Numbered from the whole stretch's first letter, positions 1,960-54,417 are shown. The stretch is 63,523 nucleotides of DNA, filler included, from Stramenopiles sp. TOSAG23-6 (GCA_900128565.1; 14 parts of 14 records of this genome joined end to end with filler, not necessarily neighbours in it), one strand, 5' to 3'. The notes: generated by a model from the sequence alone, not told the origin. Translations and numbers: made by a program.

Positions 1960-4468
1960 TCACGTGTAATGCACGTGTAAATGCTTTAGCTCCTCGCCTT
2001 GGTGTAAGTGGTGGTGAATGTGCTTTCCGTATTTTGCTTTAGTATTATATACATTAATATTTGAATATTCTACAGAGGACGCTTCCGCGTAACTATTAAT
2101 TGCAACTAATTCCACAAATCTGTGTAATATGTTTGAAGACGTAGACTTGGCAAGTTTTTTTACGTGAACAGCATTTTCTCGAGTTACACAGTGTTCCATG
2201 ATGAATATTTGTACCAACTGATGCAAGTCTTGTATTCTGTATTGATCACTCGCAACTAACAGTGCAACTGCAGCCTCATAATGCAGGGAAGGACCAACAC
2301 TAGCAGTGTATGTATAATTAATTAAACCTTGGACGGCTGTTGGTGGTAAAACAAGTCCAGAGAGTAATATATTATTGGCAATATTCTTGCTGCCTACGGA
2401 ATCGCAGTTGTTTTCATGGAAACCATTTGATAAACTTTCTTTAGATTTTTCAGATTTTTCTAGTTGAAATTTAAAATTGTTAAATAACACCGGTAATCGA
2501 GTAGCAAGAAAAGCACAATGCAAATTACTTACAGATGTACCTTCTTCTTCATTTTCGCACGATATACGAATATCGTCTAAATCACCTGATAAAGCATATG
2601 AAAGAAGAAGCGCTCGCTTATTCATTTGTTTTAGTTCCAACACTTTATTTGCTTCATTAATTCGTGTTTCTTTCAAATGTTTCTCAACAGATCGAAATGA
2701 TTTTCCACGAGCTCGTGTTTTTTTCATTAGTCGTCTTTCCTTAGCAGTAATTCTACGACGATGCTTTGTTATATTTGTTTCAGGTTTTGATATTTTATTT
2801 GAACAGCTGATGGCTGTACTATTATATAGTTCTGTATCTATTTTATCACCTGTTTCATCACTACTCCAGTCACTATTTGAATTACTTTTCGAATTATTTA
2901 TATTACTATCACGACTCATCATACTTTGTTCTGTTAGGACACTTTTTGAATCATCAAGAAACCAAGAATCATCGCCAAAACCACCAAAACCAAAATTATT
3001 ATACAGCAACTCATTCGTATCTACCATCGAAGAAGATTCCGATGATGTATCGCTGGCAAAGTCTTGCAATTCTTGATCCAATTCTTGATCGAATTCGTCA
3101 CTTTCAGTATTGTTAGTAGATAATGTAGTGTAATGTGATATGTCTGGAATTAAACTTGAAATTGACGCACTAGCCATTTTACATGAGGTTACATGAAGTT
3201 TTTGTATACAGGCATCAGCTTTATCTGGATTAATCATATCTTCTAAATATGCACAACTTCCACTGCACCATGTATCGTAACATGTAGAAATTTCATCATA
3301 GAGGGAAACAAGACTATTTGTTTTTTTATATGTAACGTATGAACCTTTATCGTCTAATTGCGGAGTTAAAATTCCAGAGTAAAAATACCGTAATAGAGCT
3401 TGGCAAACCTGCTTGGATGGTACTACATCTTCACTCCTTGTTTCCGTTATATTGACAGTTGTAGGAATAGACGCAAAAATGTTTTTAGCAATGAGTGCGT
3501 CACCATTTGTAATCTCATTCACATTGTGTTTTTTTAATTCAGTTTCCATTCGATCAAGCAAATGGTTTTTAAATAATTTCCATCGTTTACAAAGAATTGA
3601 TCGATGAACTTGAAATGTATGTTTACCCCATATTAAAGTAGTATCTGGTAGAATAGCTTGATTTTCCAAAGGAGAACTAAGACCAATCATACTTTGCATA
3701 TCTTTACACCAACATCTAATTGTGCGCAGGGAAATCCATTCTGTCATTTTTCCTGTTGCTGCTGGTGATCTACATCCAAACCAAGAAAATGAATTTGAGG
3801 AAAAGGAAGCACAAGTATTGTGAAAAAATATTTTACATTCGAAATTCGTTAAGTACAAAATTTGGTACAAAAAAATAAATTCAAAATTGAAATAATGGAA
3901 ACGTACAAAATACCCACGTATTTCTCATTCGGTCTTTTAGTTTATCTGGAACAGGAATGTGCAATCGAAGTGACGTACTTATAGCAGCAACACCATCTGA
4001 CCTAATATCGACATATTTTCTGTGTTTTCGTTGTCTAGGATGATTGTCGTCGTGAGGAATATTATTATAGCATATACCAGGCAAAAGAGCTGTAAAACCT
4101 TTACAAGCAGATTCCAACATGTCACAAGATATTAATTGTTCCTGCATATATTTTGGGTGTGGTTCAAAATCTGTCTCTCGGCGGTCTGGGTTAATACCTA
4201 CACCCCATCTATATATATATCCACGACGAGTAAGAGCAGAAGCAGCTGATACACCACAAGAAACAGAAATTACGTCGACATTTTGTAGTCCAGTAATTCG
4301 TACGGGATCATACATAAATGGTTGTGCTGCACACATTGAACCCCATTCATATACAGTGCCAGCACCATTACATGCAACAAAATATTCTTCTCCAAATGCA
4401 ACACATCGAAGAGCATTACCACAATTTGCATTATATTCGGATAAATCAATTTCTCGCATGTAAGATGC
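1960..4468 (-). CDS. 3' part of the same gene: RCC1-like repeats, one intron (3813-3906), then two BTB-like domains
   Basis: RCC1-like VISVSCG...ALTRRGYIYRWG. BTB-like FQVHRSILCKR...LLRYFYSG and LHCAFLATR...LINYTYT. Removing 3813-3906 joins WVF-C-ASF in frame. Confidence 0.75.
3813..3906 (-). mobile_element. Introner-like intron, GT...TT, TT/TT flanks
   Basis: TT|GTACGT...GTACTTAAC...CACAATAC TT|GT; removal restores the frame. Confidence 0.75.
4414..4468. repeat. 55-nt terminal direct repeat identical to 1-55 (circular-contig overlap)
   Basis: CATTACCACA...TAAGATGC is identical at both ends of contig 1. Confidence 0.95.
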
Positions 4469-4568
4469 NNNNNNNNNNNNNNNNNNNNNNNNNNNNNNNN
4501 NNNNNNNNNNNNTTAATTAATTAANNNNNNNNNNNNNNNNNNNNNNNNNNNNNNNNNNNNNNNNNNNN
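4469..4568. other. Artificial contig spacer (N-TTAATTAATTAA-N); 13 copies starting near 4469, 9036, 13596, 18155, 22709, 27263, 31815, 36356, 40895, 45430, 49957, 54484, 59005
   Basis: Identical ~100-nt N-flanked linker with stops in all six frames; intervening contigs decrease steadily in length. Confidence 0.97.
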
Positions 4569-4879: not shown

Positions 4880-6095
4880 ATGCGTAAGGTCTATATAGTA
4901 AGTTTTACACTTGTATTTCTATGTTGTATCGAAGCTTGTTCACCACCTTGTACGGATGGTCAGTACTGTTACACGAGCAAAACAACTAGCAAAAAGAAGT
5001 GTGAGAACAAAAAGGAGAAAGGGGAGCAGTGCGACAAATCATATGACTCGTGTATTGACGATAAATGTATAATCCCATCAAATCGACAAAAATTAGGTTT
5101 TTGTGGGGGTTGCATTTATCACCAAGCCGCTTGTCTTTCTAGTACATTCTGCGAAAAAGAACCTGATAGAACATTTCGAGGAGAAGTTCCTGAGACAAGT
5201 CCTCGGGGAACTTGTCTTCCTAAAATTCGTAAAGGCGGTAACTGCACTCCCAGATATGATGAATCATGCGAAGGTAATCTGGTTTGTGTATTTAATAAAA
5301 AAAATCAAAAGGACGAGTGCCAGAAACCTTGCACTTCAAATGACAATTGTCCAGCACTAAAATATTGTGAACTGACCATTGGTAAGTGTTTCCGGCAAAA
5401 ATATCATGGTGATAAATGCAAACCAACTCCAATTAATCTAAAACAGTGCCATGGTAAGTTCAAGTGTGTTCGTAACACTTGTCGTTTCAATTCGAATCTT
5501 CCAGTGGAAGCCGTTCTTGTTCCTGCTATTTGTACGTTTTCATCGTGAATTTCTGAATTATTTTTTTTTCATACGAAATTTTGTACCTAACATTTTTTTT
5601 GAAATATTTTTTCACAATACATGTGGTGCTTTGGTATTTGTCGTACTTGTATCGCTGCTCTGCAAGTGCAAGACAAAAAAAGTTTCCAGTTTAACATTCA
5701 AAGCCACGACCGAAACAATTAGATATCCCCCCGTGGGACATGAAAGATCTAATAATTTATCTCGTGTTTGCTCTAAAACTGAATTATGTATGCTTGGTGC
5801 AGAAGATACGTTAAAAAGTAGTCTAGTTCAAGCGAATGTCGTGTCGGTTGTACGTTTTCAGAGTTGAATGTTTTACCCTGTATACTATTTTTTATAGAAA
5901 AGTTTGTACCTAACGATTTTTTTTTTTATTTTCGGTAAAAAAACAAAAAAAATATTTTTCACAGAACAGGGTTCAGATAGTCTTGATATTGATCAAGCGT
6001 TAGAAACGGATCAACAGGCGAGTGGAATTACCGTTCTTCAAGAAGAGCAGGGCATTGTTTTTGAACGACGCGAAACAACAAGCATGTGCCTTTAA
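4880..6095 (+). CDS. Cysteine-rich type I membrane protein (signal peptide, Cys repeats, one TM), introns 5532-5622 and 5850-5969
   Basis: Hydrophobic N-terminus, repeated C-x-C/YC units. Splicing gives the TM segment AVLVPAI-CGALVFVVLVSLLC and joins three ORF-track fragments in frame. Confidence 0.75.
5532..5622 (+). mobile_element. Introner-like intron, GT...AT
   Basis: T|GTACGT...TTGTACCTAAC...CACAATAC AT|GT; interrupts a TM helix. Confidence 0.75.
5850..5969 (+). mobile_element. Introner-like intron ending in canonical AG at the ATAC+2 register
   Basis: GTT|GTACGT...GTACCTAAC...CAGAAC AG|GGT, phase 0 on both sides. Confidence 0.65.
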
Positions 6096-8953: not shown

Positions 8954-9188
8954 GTACTTTTTCAAAATTGAATTTCAAATTTTTTTTTTTTTTAGTTTTC
9001 GTACGAAATTTTGTACCTAACAAATTTCGAATTTANNNNNNNNNNNNNNNNNNNNNNNNNNNNNNNNNNNNNNNNNNNNTTAATTAATTAANNNNNNNNN
9101 NNNNNNNNNNNNNNNNNNNNNNNNNNNNNNNNNNNGTACGAAATTTCGTATGAAAAAAAAATAAATTAGAAATTCATATCAAACGTAC

Positions 9189-12100: not shown

Positions 12101-13595
12101 ATGCGCAATTCAATTTCAGGTTCCTTGAACCGACTGGTGCTCATAATAATTTTTTCATTCCACACAGGGCTTTTTGCTAGACGAACTTGCTGCGATGTTG
12201 CGATATAATTTGTTGTCGGGTCTTTCTGGGATTTTTTAGCTTTACTTCGCCGACTTATTTCCTTATTTTGCCATTGTGTCTTCATAGTTAGTATATGTGC
12301 ACACTTTTTTTCCCAGTCGGTTCCTGCTTCTCCAATCACTAATTGTGCAAATATACCACCAGCGCCTCTAGCGGCTTTTGTAGATTTTCCTTTTCTATTG
12401 ATACCACGAAGTTGTTCCGCTGATAAGAGGATAAATTTTAGATGATTGCCAAACACTATTTCTTCTTCTTCGTGCTTCAGTGTGTTTTGCATCGCCTTTT
12501 GTTTCTGGGCTTCGGTACTTTCTATTAACAGCGTATTCATTTGCAACACAGTAGTTCGCTGTGCTTTCCAACGTCTTGCATGGCGTTGAAGTAAAGCCAA
12601 AGCTCTCTCGCCAGGTCCACCTCGACAAAGTAGATTTGTTGCTGCAAGTTTTAATGTCAACTCAGAAACTCTCGAATTAAAAACTATTACTGTTTTTCTT
12701 CCATTTGAAATATTTTGCTTTAACATTCCTACAACTTTTGAATGGTGCAAATTTGAAACATTCTTGTCATCAACATGTGTAACATACATACCAAGTTTTA
12801 CACCTGAACGTTCAATCGGCCCTCGAATCAAATGACCTCTTTTATGACTGGTCTGTGTCGATTCTACAAGGTAGAAACGTTTAAGTCGACAACCTCGATT
12901 CATGAAACCATGATCGAATTTTACACCGATAGGACCAGGTGGAAAAGATATACGACGAGTCATTGGTTTTGGAAGAATTACTTTCGCATCACCTTTCTCT
13001 ACAGCGGTCAACATATTTTTATCAAATAGTTCTAGCGGCCTCTGCCAGCTTAAAGTAATAGTATGTATTTTGGAAAAATATTTGAAAAAAAAATCGTTAG
13101 GTACAAAATTTCGTATTTGAAAAAAAATAAAACATACACCTTGTGCAATTAATTTAAGACTCGAAGCAGATAGGTTTATATCTATTGGTCCACCAGAAGA
13201 TCGATATTTTGGTATTTTTACTCTACACTGCCCAATGACATTTCGATCAATGCACGCAGCCTCTTTAATAGCTAACTCCATTTTCATTTTATCTACAATG
13301 TTGTTAGCAACATTTGAAAAACTGTCATCAACTTCGACAATTCTAATTGATACTTCAGGCTGTGAAATATTATTTAAATTTAGCCATATCATTTCATTCC
13401 ATTTTGCATCACGTTTCCGGGGTACACTTTTAGAAGAATTTACGTATTTTATATTCCCTGGCGATGAATATTTCGTGGCCAACTTTAATTTTTCTTTAAA
13501 ACCCATTCCTTCTTCCCCTACGACCACCAATACAACACACAAAAGACCATTATCGTCGTCACTGTCACTAAAAATAAGTGTTTCATCTTTTGTAG
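9189..13595 (-). CDS. Large protein with repeated C2-PDZ-IQ modules (partial at both ends), intron 13063-13137
   Basis: Repeated P.W.E...IG.C C2 patterns, PGPIG PDZ loops and LQTQWRAR IQ-like motifs. The element peptide VCFIFFQIRNFVPN...SKIH is embedded in frame. Confidence 0.75.
13063..13137 (-). mobile_element. Introner-like intron, GT...AT, 75 nt, stop-free in frame
   Basis: GGT|GTATGT...GTACCTAAC...AAAATAC AT|ACT. Removal gives QGTITLSWQR, matching the sister repeats GKINFAWQR, GELSIIWNR and GIMWVAWER. Confidence 0.8.
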
Positions 13596-13926
13596 NNNNN
13601 NNNNNNNNNNNNNNNNNNNNNNNNNNNNNNNNNNNNNNNTTAATTAATTAANNNNNNNNNNNNNNNNNNNNNNNNNNNNNNNNNNNNNNNNNNNNAATAA
13701 AACAAACATGCATTGTGAGAATATATTAATTTATTTAATGAAATATTTTTTGTTAGGTACAAAGTGTACTACGATTTTTTTTTCTTTTTGTTCTTTACTA
13801 TACAAAAAATTGTAATAAAAACGTACGTATTTTGGAAAAATAATTCAAAAAAAAAAACTCAAATTTGTTAGGTACAACATTTCGTACGAAAAAAAACAAT
13901 TCAAATTGAAAAAAAATAAAACGTAC

Positions 13927-14499: not shown

Positions 14500-14616
14500 C
14501 GATGCAATTTTGGTACAATTTTATATAGTCTAAAGATAAAGAGCGTTGTATACTAAAATAAAACGACAAGATTACGTCTCAGAGTGTCATCATAGATAAA
14601 TATGTCAAGACCAAGG

Positions 14617-22998: not shown

Positions 22999-23663
22999 TT
23001 ATATTTTTTTTCTCTCCAAGGTAGAAAAACAATTTGAAGCGCTAGCGTAGCTGCCTCTCATACTGCTTAATATTATGAGCCATACCACACCGATAGCTGA
23101 AATATACGGAACTCGAAATTTGACTGGGACAAAAGCAAAGTTAATAGCATTTGCTGGTATCCAAAAAAAACTACATGAAAGAAAGTCTTCCAACACATTT
23201 GTCCTCCACTTTTTATGTATTGTGAAAAAATATTTGGTTTTGTTAGGTATAAAAGTCGATTTTGTATGAAAAAAAAAATTTAATTTTGAAATTGAAAACC
23301 TACATATACATTAGTTAGGCTAAATTGTCCTTGTACAATCGATTGGGTAGCGTAAAAGCATGGATAGTACAAAAATGGATTATGCAGAACATTTTCTAAA
23401 ACAATTTCTGTGCGCCACGTTGCATTCCACAGACCACGACTTCGTATGAAATTTTTACATGCTGGAAGTAATTTGCTATATGTTCCATACTGAGCGAGGC
23501 CGCACCAGAAAAATCCAAAAGCTGCAAATGTTAGCGTGCGCCAGCGATTCGGTTCTGAACGTTTTTCGACAACTCGTTGTGTAATTTCATCGCCAATCAT
23601 ACATCTAGCTCCACCAGAGGCTACAGCTAAGGAAATAGGCCAATGTGCCAACTTTGTTAACAT
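22999..23663 (-). CDS. Mpv17/PMP22 family membrane protein, intron 23215-23303
   Basis: GD.I.Q...RT..F..FG and FWIPANAINFAFVP..FRV motifs joined in frame by removing TAT|GTAGGT...AATAC AT|AAA. Confidence 0.85.
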
Positions 23664-36291: not shown

Positions 36292-36455
36292 GTACGTTTT
36301 ATTTTATTTTTACAAAAAAATCGATTTTTTTTTTTTTGGTTTTCGTACGAAATTTNNNNNNNNNNNNNNNNNNNNNNNNNNNNNNNNNNNNNNNNNNNNT
36401 TAATTAATTAANNNNNNNNNNNNNNNNNNNNNNNNNNNNNNNNNNNNNNNNNNNN

Positions 36456-37316
36456 TGTATTTTGGAAAAATATTTCAAAAAAAAAAACTTAAATTTGTTA
36501 GGTACAAAATTTAGTACGAAAAAAAAACGAATTTGAAAAAAAATAAAACATACATGCCATTTCCATTGAAAAAAAACAATCTGCACGTTTTTGCTCTAAA
36601 ATTTCCATTCTACGTCGTAAACGGTCTCCTTTTCTTGTTAGTGCTTTCAGTTCACATATTGTGAAAAATATTTTTTTTGATTTACATTTTTTTGTTAGGT
36701 ACAAAATTTTCTTGTAAAAAACAAATTTAAATTAATAAACTCAATGAGGGTTAGGGTTACCGACATATTTCGACAATTCAAAATGTTCTTTGTGAAGCCT
36801 AGACTTTTCCTTTTCCAGAGAGTCCTTTCTACCACTCAATTGGGCAGAAAGTGTTTTAGTGAGTGTATCCTCTGCTGTTTGCATTCGTTTCACTCCATTC
36901 ATGTATTTTGGAAAAATATTTCAAAAAAAAATCATAAATAATTTGTTAGGTACAAAATTTTTATAAAAAAAAAAATTCGATTTTTTTGTTAAAAAAAAAA
37001 ATAAAACATACATACTGTTTAATAGAGTATTTTCTGCACGGCGGAGAATCTTCATTCGACTTTGGATGTCGACGTCAGCACTTTTTACTTGCATTTTCCA
37101 ACTATTCACTTCATGTTGTAATACAGACAATATATTATGAAAAAATATTTAAAAAAAAAAATCGTTAGGTACAAAATTTCGTACGAAAAAAAAAAAGAAT
37201 TTGAAAAAAAAATAAAACATACATGCCATTTCATCTTGTTTCAGGGACTTTTCACGTACAATCTCTGCAGCAAGTAAGGTACGAATTTGTTGTAAGTTAT
37301 TTTCTCTCTGTCGAGC
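36456..37316 (-). CDS. Short exons of a coiled-coil protein, probably a different gene from the adjacent CFAP47
   Basis: Four exons splice into one open frame (ARQRENNL.../LSVLQHEV.../MNGVKRMQ.../ELKALTRK...). Confidence 0.55.
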
Positions 37317-37427
37317 ATGTATTTTGGAAAAATATTTCAAAATTTTCTATAAAAAAAAAATTTGTTAGGTACAAAATGTACTATAAAAAAGGTAAGACAA
37401 AAAATTGAAAAAAAAAATTAAACATAC

Positions 37428-40400
37428 ATGAATTTGAACCTTCTAAAACAGCTCGATAGTGCATTGACTCTTTGGATGGGTTTCGGAGGACAATTTTCTT
37501 TGTTGTTGTATTTCCAAGCATACTTTTAAAGTATATTTTTGTTTTAGGTATATAATTAGGAAGCGTATTGTATAAAGACAGTAACAACAGGAGCATATCC
37601 AGTGGACTAGCATTAATTAAACTTTCCCTTGTTGGAATATATTCTAAATTCAGCGTATTTAAACCTATTAAAAAGGAATCCATATTTGTAGATTGTTGTT
37701 CATAAAAATTTGAAGAAATTTCTTTTTTAGATCTATTAGTAGTAGACATATTGTTATCCGTGGATGATCGTGTCGTTGCTCTATCAGGTTTAAGGATTAA
37801 TTCGGACATTGGTCCACCAAAATCACTTGAAAGATGAGGTGCGTGAGATAGTAATAATGAACACAGTAATACACCATCACTCAAATCTTCATCAAAGCTA
37901 ATTAAGCGCCGACGTGGTTGATCTGGATTAAACTTTGCAAAATGAAATTCAACCCACTTACATAATATATTTTCAGACAAGCTATATACATTACTCTGTG
38001 TCAGTGAAGAATCGATATTTTTCTTTTTCTTTTTTTTACCATTTTTCTTACTATTTTGAAGCATATTGATGGAATTGCTTTTAGATGATTTAGATGATGT
38101 CATCTTTTGTGTTGTGTCGTCCTCTTCGTTAGCAGTGTCACTGACACCCACTACACCAGGTAAGTTCTCGTATTGTTTCAAATGAATTCGTGATAGCATA
38201 AACACCTTGATAATCTGAAGTGAAATAGTTGTCCAAGCTTCGAGAGACTCTTTTTTATATTGTCCATCGATTTTCTTTTTCATTTCAATTGATTCTGGCG
38301 ATGATGTATCAGGAGAAACCTTTTCATTTTCAGCCAATAGATTCATGACATGACGAGTGTATAAGGATTTTGGTAATAACGCTTCAGGCTTAACAAAGTG
38401 TAATAAGGCACCGTACCCTTTCAGCATTGTAAGCAATGCATTATGTATTTTGGAAAAATATTTCAAAAAAATAAAAAAAAATTTGTTAGGTACAAAATTT
38501 ACTATAAAAAAAAAATTCGATTTTTTTTTTTTTCGGTAAATAAAAAAAAAAAAATAAAACATACATACTGTGCTAATAATTTCTCCAAGGCTTCGCGTTT
38601 CCTTTCAATGGTAAAATTTGGTTTCACTTTATTAGTCACATGCTTACCAGATAAAGATTCAACAATGTTTATGACAGGAATGCCATGCTCTGCAACAATG
38701 CCATCTGGAAATTCAGAAATTGATTTTTGAAAAATATTTTGATTCATCCATTTTAACAAAAAAATTGTTCTTTGATTATTCCATTCAGCATTTGCTTTCT
38801 CTACCAAAACACTATTTTGTTTTTGTAGACTTTTTTGATTTTTTGGACTTTTTTGGATGTTTTGGATCTTTTTGATCTTTTTGATCTTTTTGATGTTTTG
38901 GACTTTTTTGATGTTTTGGACTTTTTTGGTTTTTACTTTTTGTATTTTTCCGTGTCTCCTCCAAACTAGAATTTTGTTGAATAAATTGTATTGCGCTAGT
39001 TGATGACTGTGCACTAAACATCCATGGCTTGTCAACATTTCCATCATTTCGTGCATTCCTCACAAATTGGTAATTACTGAGAACAGAGTTATCTGAAACA
39101 CCTGAAATATTAATAGAAAACCGGTTTCCTTCAGTATCCAAAAAATCAACTCGCGCAGTGAATGATAGAGATGTTTTTGATGAAAATGTGACTTTGACTG
39201 GAAATTTTTTCCTTGTTAAACCTACAAGTTTTCCTTCTGGAAAATCTAATTTAATTGGCATTCTTTCATTATCATTTGGTAAATGATATTTTACATCAAG
39301 GTTTTCATATCCAGCATTAAGCACATAAAAGGTTGCTGAAGTTTTCACACCTAATGGTACCGGTGGTAATAACACTTCATCAACATCAAACTCCAATCGT
39401 GGAAAAATCCCACCACCTCGTATATTCAATTCCAAATATGGTCTATCTTTATTTCCGTCAAGAAACACGGGAACAGTATTTTGACATGAAATAGCTCCTT
39501 CAGGTAAGAATGTGATTCGAACTTTACTTGTTGAATCAGGTTCTAAGTGACCATTGGCAGGATCGATCGAAAATGGAGATTTTTGAGATGAATTTCTTCT
39601 ACTCATTAATCCACTCAGTATTGGATTAGGACCTTTTAAATTTGTTTGATCCAATTCCCAACTTAATTTACTTTCAGATGCATTTGTTATGGTAAAATTG
39701 AGGTGGTGCGGTACATGTATTTTGGAAAAATATTTCAAAATGTTTTTTGTTAGGTATGAAATTTCATAGTAAAATACAAAAAAAAAAAAAAATTCAATTT
39801 CAAATTTAAAAAAAAAAAATAAAACATACTTTTTTCATCGGATCTCTAGAGACAACCATCTTTCCAAAATCGACACTAGATGATGACAGAACAATACGTG
39901 GACTTACCCCAGACGCAACTACAACTCTTCTAAGCGATGCTGCGTCTTTTATTCCTACAAAGGTGAGTGGCAATTCAAAAGAGTGTTTGTTTTCGTTTTC
40001 AGGTTTATATAAGATGTCTAACATTAAAGGCATTCCAGGGCGTACTGTTAGCTTAAATTGTCTTGGTCTATGTGTATCTTCATTATTATCACCACCATTG
40101 CTCTCGCCATCCTTCTCGTGAATCGAATCATCAATAGCAGTTAAAACACTCATAGTGGTAGTTGGCCGACCATCAAGACCAAGAGGTGCTGGTGCTTGCG
40201 TAATTGAAAATTCTGGAAATTTAGTCAAATTAATAAGCATTGCCGCTGGAATATTTCCATTATTTAATAATGTTAGTCTTTGTCCAACTGAAGCCCCGAG
40301 GGCTACATCTCCAAAATCAAATTCATCTTCTTGAATTCGTACTTTAGGTACCACTGCATTTGCATTTATACCTAATTTACGGGGAAGTCCACATCGTACA

Positions 40401-40894
40401 TTCACTACAATTAATGATGTTTTTGCATCATACACCCTCGGTTTTAATGCTTCCAAGGTAATAGTCAAGTCTTGTGTTCCACCTGGTAATAACCGGCCTT
40501 TCTCAGGACTACACGAAATCCCAGGAATGACAGAAGATATCCAAAACACAGCTGGAGATTTCCCAATATTTCGCATTGTTATATTTTTTTGATGTGTCAA
40601 GCCTACTGCAACTTCATCGAAATTTATTGTAGAAACTTTTTGTTTAAATCCGATTCGAGCTTCTTCCAGGACACCTCTACAAAATAAACTTTGTGATTTG
40701 CCACCTGAAATTTTCAATTCAAGAGAATCTTCCGCTTTGCCCTTTAATCGAGGGGTAAAAGTGACCCCGACATCTATGTATTTTGGGAAAATATTTCAAA
40801 ATTTTTTTACAAAAAAAAAATGTTAGGTACAAAATTTCGTACGAAAAAAAAAACTCGAATTTGAAAAAAAAAAAAAACATACATTTCTTCAAGC
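37428..40894 (-). CDS. CFAP47: CFAP47-like ciliary protein (ASH/Ig-like domains plus calponin-homology domains), internal exons; apparent +1 frameshift near 38855
   Basis: Repeated FG.V...L.N.G Ig-like units and SNVYSLSENIL..W...FDEDLSDG.LL..LL..HAP CH domain. Confidence 0.75.
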
Positions 40895-40994: not shown

Positions 40995-42239
40995 GATTGT
41001 GCTTCAATTACAGTCATTCCAAATGTTTCACCAAACCTTGAGTTAATATATACGTCAAATGTTGATATAACATGATGTACATCTTCACGATTTAAAAAAC
41101 CTGGCATTCTGAGAATTTTATTATTTTTTTTAAATGCATTATTGAATGATTCATTATCATACGGAAATGATTCTTCCAACACAGTAAAGTTAAATGATTT
41201 TGCTAAATCTTGGATACCTGAAGATAAAGGACCACTACCAGCAAATGTAAACTCGATTTGTCGGTGTTTTGGTATTTCAAAATAATTGTCCAACAAAATT
41301 TCTTTTTGTTTTGTTGTTGTTGGAGGTTCAGGATTTAACCAAATTGGCCATGTAATATTTTCAAACCCTGGAGAAGTCATTTTTTGTAAAAGTTCTTCTA
41401 TTTTTTTAATAACATGAATAAATATCCCTGGTGATCGTTCACATGCATGGCGTGCTGCCATACCTATTCGAATAACATCAATGTCATTATTTTCTTTTTG
41501 ATTTTCGTTTTGATTTTCTATTAGATTTTTTGCTACACATTCTGACGGTAAGGAGTCAACAATTGATGGTGAAATGATCTTCATCACAGTTCCAGTATTT
41601 TTTGTCTTAGATTGAATTAGATTGGCAATGATTTTATTACTGACTCGGTGATACCTTGCAACAAATGGAGATGGTACAACAACGGCTGTGATATACATTG
41701 CCCAAATATCATGAGTAAATTGAATATTTGGCATTTCAAGAATTCGACAAATAGTGTGAAAAAATAAGAAATCACAAAAAAAAATGTTAGGTACGAAATT
41801 TCGTATGAAAAAAAAAATTGAAAAAAAAATAAAACATACATGGTATTCCTACCATACTTGCAATTAATAAAATTGTTGAAGTTCGTGGACCTTGTGCGGG
41901 GATACTGACAATATCAAACCGATGTATTTGAGATGCAAAATTATGAAAATTTTGCCAAGTTTTTATTGAAAATCCAAAATCAGACGCTTCCTGTCTGTGG
42001 AGTGAAACAATATATATATTTTTTTTTAGTAAATTTTTTTGTGTTAGGTACAAAATTGTATACAAAAAAAAAATTAAAAAAATCAAAAAAAAAAAATCAA
42101 AAAAAAAAAACAAAAGTAGGGTTAGGGTTATAGTATACTCTGAAGTTGGCCAACAACTAAATTCTTTTTTTTGTGAATTTTTATGTGAGGTATTTGGAAT
42201 ATTATTATATCTACATTGATTATTTTTATTCCAAATTCT
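40995..42239 (-). CDS. GT-B glycosyltransferase (GT4-like), internal exons
   Basis: RHACERSPG, FAGSGPL, PGFL.RE.V, DVYINS..ETFGMTVIEA. Confidence 0.7.
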
Positions 42240-42342
42240 ATGTATTTTGGAAAAATATTTCAAAAAAAAAGTAAAATTTGTTAGGTACAAAATTTCGTAC
42301 GAAAAAAAAATTCGAATTTGAAAAAAAATAAAACGTACATAC

Positions 42343-43375: not shown

Positions 43376-43925
43376 CTATTCTATTTTCTTATTTTTGCCG
43401 TCTCTTCCATCTATCGAACTTGGCGCAACAATGATGTATGTATTTTGGGAAAATATTTCAATAAAAAACCCGTTAGGTACAAAATTCCGTACGAAAAAAA
43501 CATCATACAAAAAAACAAAAATAAAACATACATACACCACAAACAATAAAAATCGCTCCAACGCACCACTGGAATCCCAGACGCTCATTAAATAATAAAC
43601 AACCAAAACAACCACTGGCAAGAAAATTAGTGGAATTACTTAATACCGTAGCTACTGTAGTACCACATTCATGCATACTTTTTACAAATAAACTTATCAT
43701 TAAACCATTAGCAACTATCATTATACATAAAAACGCAAGTCTTACGATCCAAGTTGCGGAATGACATAAAAATGGTGATGGAGACTCCATTTGTAAACAC
43801 TGTGTGTCAATTGTAGTTACAACAAACGTCGAACTGTCAGATGCAAGCTTTCCACAAGCACCAGCCAATGCTGCAACAAGCCCACTAATGAAAGCAGAAT
43901 AATATCCGCCTAAAGTCAAATTCAT
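43376..43925 (-). CDS. TMEM42-like small multi-pass membrane protein, intron 43438-43531
   Basis: SG..AALA...GKLA, N..M..LF.KS, AT......NF..SG..G..LF.E; splicing gives CGVYIIVA. Confidence 0.7.
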
Positions 43926-45301: not shown

Positions 45302-45583
45302 CGTAAAGAAAAAACTAATAGGTTACATCTGTATTTATTTTGGGTTAGGGATACATATAAAAATGTTTTTAAATTCTTTTTTTTTTTTTTTTTTTTTTTC
45401 AGAGAGTTATATATATCCTTAATGACTTTNNNNNNNNNNNNNNNNNNNNNNNNNNNNNNNNNNNNNNNNNNNNTTAATTAATTAANNNNNNNNNNNNNNN
45501 NNNNNNNNNNNNNNNNNNNNNNNNNNNNNTACGAAATTTTGTACCTAACAAAAAACAATTTGAAATATTTTTACAAAATACAT

Positions 45584-48500
45584 GAATTGGATGATTTATT
45601 TGATATCAGTAGCTTTCTTGAATTTAAACAAAAGCAGCAAATATTTTCTTGTGGTCAAAATTCAGATTCTACAATAATTCATGAATATAATAATACTAAC
45701 TCACCTCAAGTGATGAAACAAAAACAACAAAATTTATTTGGACATTTCGGTAAAAAAAACAATTATTCGTACGGACCTGTTTTGCAAAAAATTGTACTTA
45801 CACAAATGTTTTACACATTTATTGAAGAAAGTATGTCTCATTCAGCACATCGAGATTTTCAAGTCCTTTTTTTTGATAATTGTATAACTGCTTTAAATGA
45901 TGTAAGAGGTGGACTTTTAATATCTCTTCCTGGTCAATCTCCAATACGAAGATTATCGAGTAATTCAAGTTCAATAAGTTCAATAAGTTCATCAAATAGT
46001 TTGGATAATCGCGTGGCCGACAATATAACTACTCCAACTAAAAATACTACTACAAAAAAAACAATAAAAACAAAAAAAACAATAAAAAAGTACATAGTAC
46101 TCCATAAACGTGTCCACTACTTTGATTTCCCCCGTGGTAGTAAAATCAAATTAAATGTTGATTTTGTTGAAAAGGGCGATTTTGTACATGCATTGCGTGA
46201 AGATAAAAGCGGGCATTGGATTTGTACTCAGGAAAAAACAAAAAATAGTGATGAAAAATGGTTGCCATTAAAATTGAAAGGCTATGGTAATCTCTTGAAA
46301 ATAGTGGATAATAATGTCATTTCTCTTACTGGCGATTCTTCTCCCCCAAGTCCGCCCAATTGTAATGTATGTTTTATATTTTTTCAATTTCGAATTTATT
46401 TTTCATACGAAATTTTGTACGTAACAATTGTTTTTGAAATATTTTTCCAAAATACATGATACACAGAAAACACCTGTGGTTCAAAAAAGTTCTCGAAATA
46501 TGTTTTCAATTAATTCTTTAAAGTCAATCAAATCAATGCGAAACATTAAGAAATCATTATCTATGATGCCATCTATTTCTTCTTCATTAAGTTTTGTCAG
46601 CAAAAGCACGTCAAGCAATCCCGTAGTGAATGTTTTACCAGAGGATGCACTTGGACTGGGTATATCTCATACATCAACAAAATTGGGTACAAAATTTGGC
46701 AGTATTAAAAAAAGTAATGGTCAAAAGTCCAATACAATTCGTCAAAATAATAGACATACCACTAGTACAATTGTGTATTTTGCACCATCAAAACTAGTTG
46801 ATATAAGTCCTGCAAATATGACAGAGCTTCTATCACCTATAAAGATAAAACCAAACAGTAATATAGTAAATTCCCCTGCAATGACACCACTTGACAAGTA
46901 TATAAGAAATACAGTTGATAATGTACCTGATAATGATGAATTGAATAGATCTAATAAACCACGTGTAGATGAAATTTCAAGGCCCAAATGTTTGGCTTCA
47001 ATGCCTTCTTTAGATACAAGAATATCAACAGTAAAGCCATTGAATCAAACATGGGAATATCCATCATGGCCTAAATTAAAACCTGCTCTATTTGGACCAC
47101 AAAGACGTCATCGGGGCAACGTTGAACGGCGTAGTAATATTCGAAGGTTGCTTGCTGTTAGAACAATCAATGAAACTTTAATTTGTCGTAATAAACTTCG
47201 CGCGGCTGTGGACTTAGGAGAAAATGGGAAATTAGAAGCTTCTGCAACTGCAAAAGTTCGAGTTTTATTGTCTGAAATATATGGTGCTTGGATGTTATTT
47301 GTACCTGCATTAGTATCAAATAGTCAACGTCGATTAGACACAATGGAAATCGCTTTGTCAGTATTAAATAGAGCTCATGCGAATGGTGTGGTTTTAGGTC
47401 AAGCTTCATATCGCGCCTTGATTATTGCAAGTGGTGCTTGTGGTGTCCATGCTCGAGGTATAGCTAATGAAGTGTTTACTAGAATGTGTGAAGTTGGAGT
47501 CATACCCAATGCGCTTACGTACGGACAATATCAAGCATCTCTAGGTGTCGCAATTTCTCTCTCTCCATGGACGCCTCGTGGAAGAAAAATGTCAACTTTA
47601 AGTAGGCCATCCAGTGTACGTTCGGTAAAGAATTTAAGTAGACAATCAAGTTTACATTCGATCAATAATGGTACAAGCAAAAAACATCAAATGACAAGTT
47701 TTACTAAATCTGTTTCTTTCAATACAGATGTAAATGAAAATTCTACTACAAATTCTCCTGTTCAAAATGTTGAAAATGTTGAAAATTCTTCTACAAATTC
47801 TCCTGTTCAAAATGTTGAAAATTCTTCTACAAATTCTCCTGTCCACCAATTAAACATGTCTGATTTAGGTTTAGATGATAAAAATAGTACAAGTATAACT
47901 AAATATGATGATGCATCTACTCCAATAAAGAATAATTCAGCAATTATTGACTCCAAGAGGAGGCGCGTAGGTTATTTTTCCTAGAAATATTTTCAATTTC
48001 GAATTTATTTTTTCGTACGAAATGTTATACCTAACAAATTTTTTTAGATTTTTCCTAGAAATATTTTTGCCTTAACTTGTTTTCGTAGTAAATTTTGAAC
48101 CTAACATTTTTTATTACTAAAAAATTATTTTCCCAAATTACATAATACAAGGGCTGTTCTTGGACAATCACAAAGTAATGATATAAACGAGAACATGTAT
48201 GTTTTTTTTTTTTTTTTAAACAAAAAAATCGATTTTCTTTTTCGTACGAAATTTTGTACCTAACATTTTTTTTTTTTTTTGAAATATTTTTCCAACTACA
48301 TAAGTCGACGAAGGTTTGCGCGTTGTGCCTCTCTTGCCGCGTCTACAAATAGTAGTCGCCAAGGGTCAGCAATTACATCAAATATAAAGAAAAGTGATGT
48401 ACGTTTTGATGATGAATTTCAAATTTATTTATTTTTTCATATGAAATTCCGTACCTAACAATTTTTTTTACTAAAAAAAATATATATTCTTTACAATACA

Positions 48501-49899
48501 TATATGCAATAGTAATACTGAATCCTCACTTTATACCTTTCAAAATAGTTTGCCCACTATTGCAATGTGGAGCCGAACGTGTCTATCTTCTGAAACAAAA
48601 AAAAATGAGATATCTCCTAAACATTCGTCAGGCTTAGGGTTTGATGAAAAATATTCTGGATTTGCTCCATTAGATGAAGAAGTTTTAGCAGCATGGGCAT
48701 CTGGTCTAGAAAACTTCAATTATCCATTAGCTTGTGGATACACAGAATTCGTAGACAAACATGAAGAATTTTCTTTCATACCAAAACTTCATTACGAATG
48801 GTATCAGCAAAGTTGTGTGAACCCTAACCCTACTATTGAATCTGGTGTATTGCAAAAGAAACAGCATTTATCAGCAGCTGTATCTGCACCTGACGTTTTA
48901 AGTACAAGCAAAAATACTCATGTACTTTTTTAATTTTCATTTTTTGTTTTGTTTTGTTTTGTTTTTTTCGTACGAAATATTGTACCTAACGATTTTTTAC
49001 ACTTTGGAAAACTTTTTACCGATATATTTACCCGTACGATCAAGAAGAAGATCAAAGACGAAAACTCTAAATGGTAGAAAAGAAAGAGGTTGTGGTGCTG
49101 TATCATACTTGTCTCCAATGGTAGGTTTTATTTTTTTAATTTCGAATATTTTTTTTTTTTTATACGAAATTCTGTACCTAACAAAAAAATATATTTTTTT
49201 TTTCACAATACAGGTATGTTTATTTTTTTCAATTTGGAATTTATTATTTTCATACGAAATTCTGTACCTAACAAAAAAATATATTTTTTTTTTCACAATA
49301 CAGGTATTACGCAATCGACTTGAGGAAATCATTCAACGTCCTGGAGGCATTGGCGATTCACTAACAGTGGATATGGATGTTTTATTTTTTTTTTTTACAA
49401 AAAAATCGAATTATTTTTTCGTACGAAATTTTGTACCTAACGAATTTTTTTAGATTTTTTTTCAAATATTTTTACAAAATACATGGATTTGCTTGAATCT
49501 ACTGATGATACTCATTCAAACACTTTTGATTCTTTATCTAGTAAATTTAAATTTGATACAAATGCAGACATGTATATTTTATTTATTTTTTTAACAAAAA
49601 AATCGAATTTATTTTTTTATAGGAAATTTTGTACCTAACATATTAAATTTTTTTTTTGAAATATTTTTCCAAAATACATATATTGGAATATGTTATGGTA
49701 TTGTACTCGTCTTCGATTGCCTATGCCATTGCAAATGGAATATGGTGGAAATAATTCGATAAAAATTGAATTTTCTAGTGAAAATCCTCGCATAAGAATT
49801 GGATGGAATTATCCTGGAATGAGTCGAGATACCAGAAATAAGTATGACACAACAAGTGATACTACTAAACTAAATACTTCAAATGGTCTTGGATTAAAT
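45584..49899 (+). CDS. DENND4-like protein (end of DENN domain, PPR-like repeats, conserved C-terminal block), many element introns, partial
   Basis: TQMF..FIEE...LFFD.CI; SYRALI..G...A..VF..M...GV.PNALTYG.Y; DEEVLAAW; YLSPM-VLRNRLE; YWNMLWY..RL.LP. Confidence 0.75.
49121..49303 (+). mobile_element. Two abutting elements (49121-49213, 49214-49303), both GT...AG
   Basis: ATG|GTAGGT...AATACAG|GTATGT...AATACAG|GTA; the 3' halves are identical. Confidence 0.8.
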
Positions 49900-50111
49900 G
49901 TATGTATTTTGGAAAAATATTTCAAAAAAAAAATTTAATTTGTTAGGTACAAAATTNNNNNNNNNNNNNNNNNNNNNNNNNNNNNNNNNNNNNNNNNNNN
50001 TTAATTAATTAANNNNNNNNNNNNNNNNNNNNNNNNNNNNNNNNNNNNNNNNNNNNTTGTACCTAACAATTTTTTTTAGATTTTTTTTGAAATATTTTTC
50101 CAAAATACATA

Positions 50112-51340
50112 CTACTCATTTGGAAAACTTTAAATTAAAAGATGATATGAATGAATGTACAAAGGGACAATATAAAATTTCGGATGTGACAAAACGTAGA
50201 ATTATTAGACACGTGTCAAAGTATGCTAATTCTTCAAGCAATAGAGAAGCTTTCAATGTTCTTTTTAGAACTTTCTTGGGACACGTACTTGTACTGTTGT
50301 CTTCTATTTCAATACAAAATAGTATAGTAAGTCGTACAATTAGTGTATGTTTTTTTTTTTTCAATTTAAATTTAAATTTAAATTTAAATTTAAATTTAAA
50401 TTCCGAATTTTTTTTTACCAAACAAATTTTACAAAAAAAATATTTTTTCACAATATATGTACTTGGATTTGCCCTGTTGCGATTACGGCTCTATATGATC
50501 TTCCATGATTGTGCTCACTGTTCGTTTTTTCCAAGACAAACATCAAAAAAATACAAATCAAAAAAAAAATATAATTCAAGTAAGATGAATGAATATACAG
50601 GTGTTTTAATTGGTGTGACAATATATACACCATATTATATATGGGCTAGAGGTCATCGGTGTCATCATACAAATGTCAATAATATTGATTCCAAACAGTA
50701 TGATGGAATTTCTGCCCCATGGACAACAGTTGATTGGAACGTAGCTAATTATAGTAGTCGTATTTGGTATTTATTCAATTATGGTCCAATTACATATTTT
50801 ACAATTATGCCATTCTTAACTGTTGTGTTTCTACAAAGATTCAGTTGTTCATATATAGAAAATTGTAGTGTTTTAATATGGCTTACTTTAATATATTTAG
50901 CATCGGGAATAGTTGGGGTATATATTGAATTCGCTATTGTATTTTTATTCACTACTATCGGTTATTTGCTGTTTCATGTACAGCATACATTTGAAAATAG
51001 TTACAAAGCAGATAATTGCCATTGGAATTTTATTGATTCTGCTTTATTAGGATCCAGTTTTGCTTTAATCCCAAATTTTCTAAAATATTTTACACTTGGT
51101 ATAGAGTATCATCATATACACCACTTGAACCCACAGGTTCCATGCTACCGTCTACAAAAATGTCATGAAACAGCAGATGAGTTAGATTTACTTCCAATGA
51201 TTGAAAGAGTTAACTTCTCAAAGTTTTTATCTTCACTTGGATTTTCTATATATAACATCTGTAGTAATACATCTGGTAATAAGGGGTTCTATTCAAATGT
51301 TTATATGCATGCCATTTCAAGTTTTATAGATGGCAATTAA
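50112..51340 (+). CDS. Membrane fatty acid desaturase (5' partial), intron 50345-50458
   Basis: Histidine boxes HDCAH, HRCHH and HHIHH, plus LFHVQHTFE. Confidence 0.88.
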
Positions 51341-51770
51341 TGCCATTTATTTTATTTTAATAAATCTATTTCCATCTCTCAGCTCATCTGGAGCTCATCT
51401 GAGATTGATAATATATCAAAGAAACATGATTTTTTTTTTTGAAAAGTAGTTTTTTTTATTTTGTACATTGAATTTTAATGTCTCAATGATTAGATTGCAA
51501 ATTTTACATTTTTCTTGTTTTTTCGTGTTTACGTTTATTACGATTTATATTTAAATAGAATTTCGTGTTTTTTTTGCCATATGGGCGCGTCATTTCCTTG
51601 TTGAAAAATGTACTCCTCTTTTTGAAATTTTGCCATCCCTGAATAATATAAGAAATATATTCATTCATGCTTTCAATGCGTATTACTCTGTGTAAACCAT
51701 ATGTAGTTTGATTAATTCTATTATACATTAATTTACTGAAACTGAGTGTGTGCCAACTGCAGTCAACAGA

Positions 51771-54417
51771 ATGAGACGTCGCAGACAAAATCAAGCTTTT
51801 CTTCACGAAGACAACCCGTGCACACGTCGTTTTCGTCATTTCTTACACCGAACAATGCATACTCGTACATACCTTCTGCTTAATACATGCCTTGTTTTAT
51901 TTTCATGTATTGCTTATGTGGTTGAAACTTATGTAGATGAAGATATTCCTTCTCCAGCCTACGCAACTTCTCCACAGCACTGGGTTACTCTCATTATTGA
52001 TATATTTATTAACTTCGCTTTCGCTGTAGATTTTATATTTTCTGTCATTGGATTCGGGCGCGAGTATATATTTTCTGTATATGCTCTGGTAGACTTTCTC
52101 TGTTTAGTACCCGCTCTACGTCTATTCGTTGAAGGTTCAAAAAACTTAGGGTGGATTCGTTTTTTTCGTGTCTTCAAAGCTGTTCGAATACTCGGACTTT
52201 ATCGTATTCTTGAAATACAGCAGCAAGGAAATATGGTGGATACTGTTTCTCAACAAATAGGTAAGCTGTGCTTTACACTTTGTGGTATAATATTTGTTAC
52301 TACTGGAATAGTACATGCTTTTGAGGTACATAACTATGAGTCGTTCATTGACTCTCATGATTCCAGTGGAGTTGCACGGCAGAGTATGTACGTTTTTCAT
52401 CATGAATTTCAAATTTATTTTCTTTTTCATACGAAATTTTGTACCTAACAAATTTCGAATTTGACATATTTTTTCAAAATACATGCCCTTTCATGAGGCC
52501 TTTTATTTTATAATTGTAACATTTTCAACTGTTGGTTATGGTGATATATCTCCTGCAACTACGGAGGCAAGGATGACAATGGTAGTATCTATCTGTGTCG
52601 CATTTGCAACGATACCTTCAAAAGTTGCGTTATTGTACGTACCAAAAATAACCCTAACCCTAGTCTTTATCAAAATATTCAAAAAAAAAAAAAAAATTCA
52701 TAGAAAATTTTATACCTAACGAATTTTATTACTAAAAAAAATATATATATATTTTCTCACAATACTTGACTACTCAGTTATCAAAACGATCGGTATATCG
52801 AACAAGAAGTATTGCTAGAAGACATAATAGATGTGGTCGATTCCGCTGGCCTTGTCGATGTATGTTTTATTTTTTTGAAAATTTGATTTTTTTTTTTGGT
52901 TTTTTATAAAAATTTTGTACCTAACAAAAAATTTTAGATTTTTTTTTGAAATATTTTTCCAAAATACATGTCCTCGAAATGTCATAAAATGCTTTAGTTG
53001 TTGTTGTATTGAAGATGATACTAGGCAAAAACTACAGCAGAATTCGAATAAACGAAATGTCAGTGGCGAGTTCTATTCTTCAGCTGCTGTGAATAATTTT
53101 CATCTTGCTAGGCAAAATAGAGTAAAAACAAAATGTAATTGTACATTATTTCAACATCGTGATCATGTACGTTTTATTTTTTTTTCAATTTTGAATTTAT
53201 TTTTTTATAAAAATTTCGTACGTAACGATTTTTTTTTACTAAAAAAATATTTTTCCAAAATACATGTAGTGGTGTGTGGTAATATTACTGCAGGTGGTCT
53301 TTCTGTGTTTCTGTGGGAATTTTTACATCCAGATCATTATGTAACTAGACGACATCGTCGTTTAGAAATGCCACGTGTCATTGTTTTAGCCCCGTATGAT
53401 CCTGTTCCAGGATCTATGATTGATATTGTATTAAAACAACCACATCATCGCAATCATGTATGTTTTNTTTTTTTTTTNAANCAAAAAAANTCGANTTNAA
53501 NTTNAANTTTTGTACCTAACAAATTTAAGTTTTTTTTTTTTGAAATATTTTTCCAAAACACATGTCATTTGGTTGACAGGTAGTGCGATGATTGGTACAG
53601 ACCTTACTCGTGCAGCTGTTGATGAAGCACTTGCTATATTTATACTGACAAATCCTGTATGTTTTTATTTCATTTTTGTAACCCTATTTGTTTTTTTTTT
53701 TTAATAGTAAATTTCGTACCTAACGAGGTTTTTTTACATTCAAAAAAAAAGATAATATTTTTTCTTAATAAATGCTTCAGATGATCCTAAAGATGATGAC
53801 TCCCGTGCTGTACTTAGAACACTTTCAGTTGCAAGGCATGATAGTGAAGTCCTCACTTTTGTTCAATTGCATCGATCAAAAACTAAAGATCACTTACTGC
53901 ATGCTGGAGTTGTCCCACAATGCATGTTTTCATTTCAATTTCAAATTTATTTATTTTTCGTACGAAATTTTGTACCTAACAAATTTTAGTTTTTTTTTTT
54001 TGAAATATTTTTTCATAATCCATGCATGTTTTCAAGAGATGAATTGATGCTTCCTCTATTGGCACACGCTTGCCGTTGTCCTGGATTTAGTACGATGATT
54101 AGCAATATAGTTTCCAGTCATAGTATGATTCCAGAAATGAAAAAATGGACTGTCAAATCTATTTATGGAGACACCCAAGTCGAGTGGGAGGAATATGTTA
54201 ATGAAAGTTCGATTAATTGTAGTGAAGTCAATGTTGATATTAATGGAATGAAAAATTATTGCCAGTCATTGGGTGAAGAAGCAAAGGAACCATGGGTGTA
54301 TGAATACTATCGCGGTGCCTCGCACGAAATATATTCTATTGATGTGGGTAGTAAATTAAGTGGATTTGTGTTTTCGGACGTTGCTTTTAAATTATACGCA
54401 TTGTTTGAAGTCGTAAT
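51771..54417 (+). CDS. Calcium-activated (Slo/BK-like) potassium channel, 3' partial, eight element introns
   Basis: S4 RFFRVFKAVRIL, pore STVGYGD, RCK HVVVCG and GSAM..DL.RA. Introns 52388-52484, 52635-52767, 52860-52969, 53167-53265, 53458-53563, 53657-53773, 53922-54023 and 54418-. Confidence 0.88.
52635..52767 (+). mobile_element. Introner-like intron, GT...TT, TT/TT flanks, containing a CCCTAA dimer
   Basis: TT|GTACGT...TACCTAAC...CACAATAC TT|G gives KVALLTTQL. Confidence 0.75.
53922..54023 (+). mobile_element. Introner-like intron, GC...AT
   Basis: T|GCATGT...GTACCTAAC...AATCC AT|GC gives VPQCMFSRDEL. Confidence 0.7.

Follow-up and report, generated by a model that had tools for sequence, protein, structure and literature searches.

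The question raised by this stretch of DNA is how a single short repeat came to sit inside so many genes, and which bases mark the ends of the unit that is removed from them. The window, i.e., the whole stretch of 63,523 bases analyzed from Stramenopiles sp. TOSAG23-6 (GCA_900128565.1), an uncultured marine eukaryote, is not one locus; it is made up of 15 eukaryotic contigs of ~4.5 kb, placed in order of decreasing length. Distributed over it are ~60 copies of one intron-sized repeat of ~95 nt, about one per kilobase. The original prediction described this repeat as a transposon with GTAT/ATAC inverted termini and a 2-nt, target-site-like duplication that supplies the splice acceptor. Our results suggest, with a probability that we put at roughly 0.5, that the repeat is an introner family whose short, non-autonomous, high-copy members likely inserted at the DNA level with a duplication of 2 bp, mostly AT, and that the downstream copy of this duplication is the acceptor. 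The underlying observation is real, and the duplication idea is a reasonable instance of a published mechanism.

Copies of the repeat follow the layout GTAYGTTTT ... TTGTACCTAAC ... T-tract ... AAATAC, then 2 nt, and the full consensus, which is 95 nt long, reads (Y)AT ^ GTAYGTTTTATTTTTTT..CAATTTCGAATTT..TTTCGTACGAAATTTTGTACCTAAC..T-tract..GAAATATTTTTCCAAAATAC ^ AT (R), where carets mark the ends of the core. Each copy has GTAYGT as its U2-type donor and TACCTAAC as its branch site, followed by a T-rich tract and, on the 3' side, by a conserved tail that closes with AATAC. The branch-site-like 11-mer TTGTACCTAAC has 84 matches on both strands (≤2 mismatches), most of them within the repeat, and starting from these we delimited 46 full copies visually; those left out were a composite at 31517-31689, a long T-rich intron at ~59.6 kb, four degenerate fragments and ~14 copies truncated by contig ends or N. 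A profile built from three clean copies gave 52 nhmmer matches at E ≤ 1e-3 in 63.5 kb. Identity to the consensus ranged from 0.59 to 0.93 among the 46 copies, and two types of tail were seen, one nearer the consensus (TTTCCAAAATAC) and one more diverged (TTTTCACAATAC). Donors were of the form GTAYGTTTT, beginning with GT in 44 copies, GC in one and GG in one, and the distance between branch A and boundary was 28-56 nt (median 40.5), similar to that in U2-type introns. All copies for which the reading frame could be decided were oriented with the sense strand of ordinary genes, among them BTB, C2, CFAP47, LRR, desaturase, BK-channel and ABC genes. Copies occur throughout 3813..52767, the range given originally, but the family continues to 63523.

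To define the excised unit, we determined for each copy the removal length that leaves one frame open on both sides, which was decidable for 30 copies and undecidable for 16. Removal of the core plus two bases kept the frame in 26/30 decidable copies (binomial P = 2e-9 against 1/3), and two of the four exceptions are explained, since the acceptor of the copy at 31102 is a TAG lying three bases farther along and the copy at 36656 ends in ..ATAT, with the AT inside the core. Protein comparisons agreed with this. When the BK-channel gene was modeled with core-plus-two cuts at seven introns, its product aligned without gaps at 7/7 junctions with P0040, at 60-63% identity over two aligned stretches, and residues on both sides of the junctions were identical at RDH^VVVCGN (53167), HRNH^VIWLTG (53458) and (E/Q)^CMF.RDELML (53922). 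P0040 is a BK-channel relative of 1775 residues; no other close relative was found for the genes of the window. The desaturase model likewise aligned with P0001 across the 50345 junction, just before the HDCAH box. These results indicate that the elements are intron-sized insertions in coding sequence and that what is excised comprises the core and one of the two dinucleotide copies, both as first proposed; we infer that the spliceosome removes them.

We then compared the dinucleotides on the two sides of the core, writing each pair X/Y for the dinucleotide before GT and that after the core. Pairs listed originally were confirmed at all 16 positions, those at 3813, 13063, 23215, 26681, 31102 and 43438 being on the minus strand. 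Pair statistics cover 45 of the 46 copies (one flank has N), and expectations were obtained by shuffling partners. AT preceded GT in 26/45 copies and followed the core in 33/45, with AT/AT in 24/45. The upstream and downstream dinucleotides were identical in 28/45 copies, compared with 19.8 expected (P = 7e-5), and in 27/41 compared with 20.2 (P = 3e-4) when four tandem-array copies were left out; in the full set, the true register was the sole significant one of 12 upstream/downstream offsets (P = 0.0005). Identity within pairs is therefore higher than a plain base preference would give. Much of the excess is AT paired with AT, which decay of old copies on both sides could also produce. Independent non-AT matches, i.e., TT/TT at 3813 and 52635 and GT/GT at 26681, numbered 3 compared with 0.66 expected (P = 0.016); AG/AG at 49214 was not independent, since it belongs to a tandem pair formed by local duplication, the 3' halves of which are identical. 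In the CAC-tail subfamily (n = 16), pairs matched in 8/16 copies compared with 3.75 expected (P = 0.008). The younger subfamily carries no information on matching because its downstream pair is AT in 25/25 copies.

Divergence from the consensus bears on how the pairs arose. AT/AT copies averaged 0.81 identity to the consensus and all others 0.72 (Mann-Whitney P = 9e-5). Among the 12 consensus-nearest copies with readable flanks, the upstream dinucleotide was AT in all, and the nearest copies were all AT/AT. Mismatched copies ended in AT (9) or AG (4, plus one TAG), as had been stated, and the suggested drift of the intronic copy toward better acceptors fits, since mismatched copies are more diverged and the exonic CT at 53657 looks ancestral. 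Position -3 was C or T in 30/46 copies and position +3 was G or A in 43/45 (Y-AT-R). A TA duplication, in the register of Tc1/mariner elements, was rejected, since constant bases outside it would have to be target sequence. Taken as a whole, the evidence for a true 2-bp duplication at the copies is suggestive rather than decisive. Under the duplication model, an element would land in a gene by DNA-level insertion through a 2-bp staggered cut, usually at AT within Y-AT-R; the upstream copy of the dinucleotide would remain in the exon and the downstream copy would become the 3' acceptor, so that the spliceosome would remove the core and the next two bases, from GT to a non-AG end. In older copies, the intronic dinucleotide would then tend toward AT or AG.

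The same family and the same GT...AT splicing could also have arisen with no duplication, which we regard as possible although rather unlikely. The mobile unit would be GT...ATACAT, carrying both splice sites and landing after an exonic AT (Y-AT^R), by reverse splicing of the excised intron with subsequent reverse transcription and recombination, or by a duplication-free DNA route, and TT/TT and GT/GT would be coincidences of later mutation. In the younger subfamily, upstream AT occurs in only 19/25 copies while downstream AT is invariant, with no unconverted non-AT pair, and an AT borne by the element fits these pairs more simply. Nine copies have AT downstream and a non-AT dinucleotide upstream, compared with two of the reverse kind, and at 53657 the CT encodes part of a Pro conserved in P0040, so that this site would not have been AT. 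All copies are in genes and in sense, each with a full set of splice signals; inverted termini are negligible and the window holds no transposase. According to the available part of Gozashti et al. (PMC9860276), moreover, a pattern common to all copies cannot separate duplication from site preference. However, the non-AT matches and the CAC-tail matches described above outnumber those expected from shuffled partners, and a near-absolute site preference would be needed for upstream AT in all 12 consensus-nearest copies. In the tandem at 13708-13926, too, no AT separates the copies, although a unit that carried AT should have left one there. The proposal that a 2-nt duplication supplies the acceptor stands in so far as matches exceed base preference, but for the younger subfamily an element-borne AT explains the data equally well.

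Where the pairs match, GT...NN and NN...AC introns give the same spliced product, so that it is the mismatched copies that discriminate between them. In the GT...NN register, 15/15 readable mismatched copies were open. This bears on a second alternative, in which the introns are AT...AC, with the upstream AT as the first intron pair, ATAC as the intron end and the downstream AT exonic. AT and AC are known to be compatible as intron ends, AC ends 35/46 cores, the AT/AT copies are neutral, and the copy at 49375 has GG for GT with its AT kept. In that register, however, the copy at 62628 (TT/AT) gains a TAA within the membrane domain of an ABC transporter, and the one at 53657 (CT/AT), for which GT...AT gives LTNP^AS where P0040 has LTDPAS, has His in place of the conserved Pro. 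AT precedes only 26/45 cores while GT or GC is present in 45/46, the C of ATAC has been lost from six AT/AT copies that retain the AT after it, and GTAYGT is in register with a U2-type donor. We therefore consider AT...AC introns highly improbable; the two mismatched junctions, as read from the DNA, favor GT...AT, and the claim that the downstream copy stays in the intron as its acceptor holds at both. Read this way, about three quarters of the introns would end in AT, with AG in 4-5 copies, GT in 3-4, TT in three and GC in one truncated copy.

A canonical AG farther downstream was rejected as the true acceptor: the first AG past the core showed no frame preference (18:12:16), and use of the next AG at 50345 would remove the His box. 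In 35/46 copies, the stretch from the branch site (+8 nt) to the boundary contained no AG. TTTTAG occurs ~13 nt past the branch A in several copies (52915-52940, 49431-49455 and 50057-50085); by frame, it is not the acceptor used. In the non-conventional, structure-defined introns of euglenids and Amoebophrya, the ends of the intron pair stably. In this family, a helix of 6 bp between the ends (AUGUAU/AUACAU) closed 5/7 folded AT/AT copies, with z-scores from -2.8 to +0.4, and was absent in GT/GT and TT/TT copies. U12-type introns have the donor RTATCCTT and the branch site TCCTTAAC 10-15 nt from the 3' end, and GT-AT and AT-AC termini occur among them. The family resembles them in tolerating non-AG 3' ends and in a donor that can begin with GTAT, but it was not assigned to this class, since the donor is GTAYGTTTT and the branch motif lies at a median of 40.5 nt from the 3' end; an expansion of U12-type introns is described for Physarum in the available part of one report (PMC11282704). 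Least credible of all is ciliate-like removal at the DNA level, as internal eliminated sequences with 2-nt pointers cut out of a somatic nucleus by a domesticated transposase: pointer-guided elimination takes out an element along with one of the two copies of a 2-nt direct repeat of any sequence (AT, TT, GT) and would account for the indifference to the acceptor dinucleotide, but conservation is highest in the donor, branch site and T-tract, even where other parts have been replaced, the branch-to-end distance is U2-like, the reading frames are in the standard code, and DNA excision does not require that all copies be in sense.

The transposon side of the model was examined through its termini and enzymes. 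Terminal inverted repeats (TIRs) are usually 10 nt or more. The proposed hallmark of GTAT/ATAC inverted termini did not survive, since the match is 4 nt at most and perfect in 15/46 copies, too short and too variable for TIRs; GTAC...ATAC was found in 10/46, and an inverted repeat of 6-7 nt appears solely when the AT pair and the flanking C/G are counted. The threshold used in the available part of Gozashti et al. (PMC9860276) is 6 nt or more. GTAYGT is simply a good 5' splice site. As had been noted, the window contains no transposase: none was present among its 39 open reading frames (ORFs) of at least 150 residues, and neither a DDE/HTH/THAP transposase nor a YqaJ ORF was found in it. DNA-level transposition and the type of transposase are attributes that we infer for the family.

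Several observations weigh against the duplication model. The locus-specific signal is thin, coming down to three independent non-AT pairs; one off-register control in the CAC-tail subfamily gave P = 0.009, near the P = 0.008 of the true register; and the composition of the younger subfamily, described above, points to an element-borne AT. The units of the tandem at 13708-13926 have no dinucleotide between them, an arrangement not expected from a 2-bp duplication, and neither this model nor that of an element-borne AT accounts for it. The young AT/AT copies at 37317-37427 and 42240-42338 are consistent with loss of the core only: core-plus-two removal creates a stop at or just after the junction, and core-only removal opens a long frame into clearly coding sequence. 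Alternative use of 3' sites, gene ends or assembly errors are possible reasons for these. Boundaries were set by eye, and the alignment could shift in some diverged tails. The termini show no covariation between GTAC and ATAC besides being short, no autonomous partner is visible in the window, and the uniform sense orientation also counts against the model. We know of no precedent for TT, GT and GC acceptors with a U2-type spliceosome, and the helix between the ends has no significant folding energy. Near-identical spliced proteins were absent from the protein collection (relatives of the desaturase exon reached ≤48% identity, and the first BK exon matched nothing at E ≤ 1e-10). Finally, the Y-AT-R target differs from the A^AT^T given for ISL2EU elements in the available part of their description (PMC4482050).

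Introners in which the element brings one splice site and a target-site duplication provides the other are a known class, and Huff et al. 2016 reportedly described them. The available parts of other reports describe such splice-site-supplying duplications in Micromonas pusilla, Aureococcus, Chrysochromulina sp., Symbiodinium and Polarella (PMC9860276; PMC11282704; bioRxiv 10.1101/2020.10.14.339549). The interpretation is not novel as such (PMC9860276, as far as its available part goes). Like those introners, the family is short, non-autonomous and high in copy number, lies in sense within genes, would be scarless at the mRNA level and has a cleaner signature in younger copies; as in the accessible account of Chrysochromulina sp., the element brings the donor, and the flanking repeat would supply the acceptor. 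Conversion of the duplicated copy comparable to that suggested here is reported, in the part available, for dinoflagellate introners (bioRxiv 10.1101/2020.10.14.339549). In contrast to known introners, the duplication is 2 nt rather than the 3-9 nt given in the accessible descriptions, it is usually AT, so that the co-opted acceptor is not AG, no clear TIR is present, and splicing is predicted from DNA alone. What sets the family apart from known introners is thus a 2-nt, mostly AT duplication and a dominant 3' end of AT in otherwise textbook U2-type surroundings. A 2025 survey of introners counts AG and AC alone as familiar 3' sites in its curation (PMC12130899), and a literature search, which did not extend to supplementary tables, turned up no description of this family or of any GT-AT introner family.

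Two further systems are close in some respects. MITE-derived (miniature inverted-repeat transposable element) non-canonical introns of Fritillaria borealis (PMC11282704) and introner elements of Amoebophrya (PMC7789003) are, in the portions available, likewise transposon-like, with direct repeats across exon/intron borders and non-GT-AG ends that imply a tolerant spliceosome. Their ends, as described there, are variable or AG-AC/AG-AT, with inverted repeats of 8-20 nt and often no standard donor; the family described here, in contrast, has a textbook U2-type donor, branch site and T-tract, and its last dinucleotide alone is odd. ISL2EU elements (PHIS, PIF/Harbinger-ISL2EU-Spy) duplicate 5'-AT-3' at a target A^AT^T, according to the accessible part of PMC4482050, and thus share a 2-bp AT duplication and an AT-rich, roughly palindromic target with the family. 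They have real TIRs, a DDE/THAP transposase and a YqaJ ORF, by the same partial account, none of which was seen in the window; the putative link to them is through the duplication alone.

Coordinates of repeat copies and of examples of telomere-like sites in the window (pairs are written as in the text; for partial copies, the surviving dinucleotide is given).
Feature	Position	Strand	Pair	Remarks
Full copy	3813..3906	-	TT/TT	CACAATAC tail; frame needs core plus two
Full copy	5532..5622	+	TT/AT	
Full copy	5850..5969	+	TT/AG	AG acceptor
Contig-end-cut copy	8966..9035	+		
Full copy	13063..13137	-	GT/AT	
Two copies, different subfamilies, head to tail	13708..13926	-		ATAC directly abuts GTACG; ATAT upstream and a single AT pair downstream, outside both units
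Full copy	23215..23303	-	AT/AT	
Full copy	26681..26770	-	GT/GT	
3' part, contig-end-cut	27207..27262	-	downstream GC	
Full copy	27364..27468	-	AT/AT	contig end 3 nt away
Full copy	30811..30901	-	AT/AT	tail ..ATAT
Full copy	31102..31198	-		TAG acceptor 3 nt beyond aligned core end
Full copy	31288..31404	-	GC/GT	
Composite copy, outside counts	31517..31689	-	CA/AT	
3' part, contig-end-cut	31745..31814	-	downstream AT	
5' part, contig-end-cut	31915..32010	-	upstream AT	
5' part, contig-end-cut	36292..36355	+	upstream AT	
Full copy	36456..36553	-	AT/A then N	contig end
Copy with telomere-like 5' part	36656..36760	-		5' part GTAACCCTAACCCT; by frame, intron end is ..ATAT
Full copy	36901..37011	-	AT/AT	
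Full copy	37130..37222	-	AT/AT	tail ATAT
Full copy	37317..37427	-	AT/AT	exception; frame fits core-only removal
Full copy	38443..38564	-	AT/AT	0.91 to consensus
Full copy	39715..39829	-	AA/AT	
Full copy	40776..40882	-	AT/AT	
Full copy	41749..41839	-	AT/TT	
Copy with telomere-like 5' part	41995..42138	-	GA/AG	AG acceptor
Full copy	42240..42338	-	AT/AT	core-plus-two removal gives TAG at junction; core-only open
Full copy	43438..43531	-	AT/AT	
3' part, contig-end-cut	45530..45583	+	downstream AT	
Full copy	46367..46457	+	AT/AT	
Composite copy (~1.5 units)	47967..48143	+	GC/AT	
Full copy	48197..48301	+	AT/AT	
Full copy	48399..48501	+	AT/AT	
Diverged copy	48922..49027	+	AT/AT	
Tandem pair	49121..49303	+		TG(copy)AG(copy)AG; identical 3' halves; local duplication
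Full copy	49375..49484	+	AT/AT	GG replaces GT donor; in-frame GT 6 nt upstream of GG could serve as donor
Full copy	49572..49679	+	AT/AT	
3' part, contig-end-cut	49902..49956	-	downstream AT	
3' part, contig-end-cut	50057..50110	+	downstream AT	
Full copy	50345..50458	+	GT/AT	fatty-acid desaturase gene; no AG before conserved His box
Full copy	52388..52484	+	AT/AT	BK-channel gene
Copy with telomere-like 5' part	52635..52767	+	TT/TT	BK-channel gene
Full copy	52860..52969	+	AT/AT	BK-channel gene
Full copy	53167..53265	+	AT/AT	BK-channel gene (RDH^VVVCGN)
Full copy	53458..53563	+	AT/AT	BK-channel gene (HRNH^VIWLTG)
Full copy	53657..53773	+	CT/AT	retained CT keeps Pro common to P0040
Full copy	53922..54023	+	AT/AT	GC donor
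5' part, contig-end-cut	54418..54483	+	upstream AT	
3' part, contig-end-cut	54584..54666	+	downstream AT	
Full copy	56505..56596	+	AT/AT	
Full copy	60951..61061	+	AT/AT	nearest to consensus of all copies (0.93)
Full copy	62197..62309	+	AT/AT	
Full copy	62628..62738	+	TT/AT	AT...AC register gives in-frame TAA
Long copy	62882..63050	+	TT/AT	
5' part, contig-end-cut	63110..63165	+	upstream AT	
3' part, contig-end-cut	63210..63252	+	downstream AT	
Copy cut by window end	63430..63523	+	upstream AT	
Telomere-like dimer site	36747-36758			
Telomere-like dimer site	42118-42129			
Telomere-like dimer site	48820-48831			
Telomere-like dimer site	52650-52661			
Telomere-like dimer site	60836-60859			
Telomere-like dimer site	61785-61796			

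Contigs of the window are joined by N44-TTAATTAATTAA-N44 spacers (4469-4568, then every ~4.5 kb), the linker of which stops all six frames. The repeat is frequent where contigs end, 13/28 ends lying within 15 nt of a copy and three more being in copies by eye; the assembly evidently breaks at the repeat, as it should in a genome with very many copies. In introns and at contig ends, very long T or A homopolymers (59620-59800, 45380-45400, 59105-59132 and 63130-63165) are probably additional causes of breaks. GC content is ~0.24-0.41, and the ORFs are those of ordinary genes of a flagellated eukaryote in the standard code, with CFAP47/CFAP65/hydin-type domains, CFAP97, a BK-type potassium channel, an ABC transporter, DnaJ, a GPN-loop GTPase, ankyrin and LRR proteins and a fatty-acid desaturase. 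The ABC-transporter ORFs (59673-62276) contain long low-complexity runs of KNSKN/KNTKN repeats. A degenerate copy of the repeat at 6362-6405 (minus strand), which lacks a GT donor, begins right at the TGA stop of a CFAP97-like ORF and is flanked by a direct repeat of ~20 nt (CTCTTTGATATTTTGATTTT). A scan of the window against Rfam gave no family at gathering score, and no small nuclear RNA genes were found.

The telomere-like dimer AACCCTAACCCT (≤1 mismatch) occurs at 16 sites in 32089-63371, compared with 0.10 expected from shuffles. Three of these sites are located immediately within the 5' end of introns related to the family; others are in ORFs, where they read NPNP or GLGLGL. As for occurrence elsewhere, the sampled words of one contig were found at shares of 0.05-0.41 in seawater metagenomes and 0.05-0.07 in two metatranscriptomes, of which small shares are evidence of nothing, and parts of one contig are also present in three small DNA runs coded 'organism A'. 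Among metagenome contigs, a 20-nt stretch of the branch region had no matches and a 20-nt stretch of the tail had 13, all by chance, with no other feature of the family and no nhmmer match.

Introners are the best-documented route of mass intron gain, and their limit is whether an insertion can be spliced. A broader proposal, which we put forward tentatively and regard as doubtful at present, is that the major spliceosome of this organism routinely uses a position-fixed, non-AG acceptor two bases past the AAUAC tail and that its tolerance of TT, GT and GC beside AT allowed an ISL2EU-like transposon with a 2-bp AT duplication to seed about one intron per kilobase of gene space. If this is true, most introns of a free-living marine eukaryote would owe their 3' splice-site sequence to the target specificity of a transposase rather than to the AG rule, and a burst of introns would be tied to AT as the specific target of a transposase. 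Gene callers restricted to GT-AG introns would mispredict most genes of this organism, and published gene sets for it may be systematically wrong. If RNA data confirm the predicted splicing, the 3' dinucleotide rule would be the element of splice-site recognition to give way first under transposon invasion.

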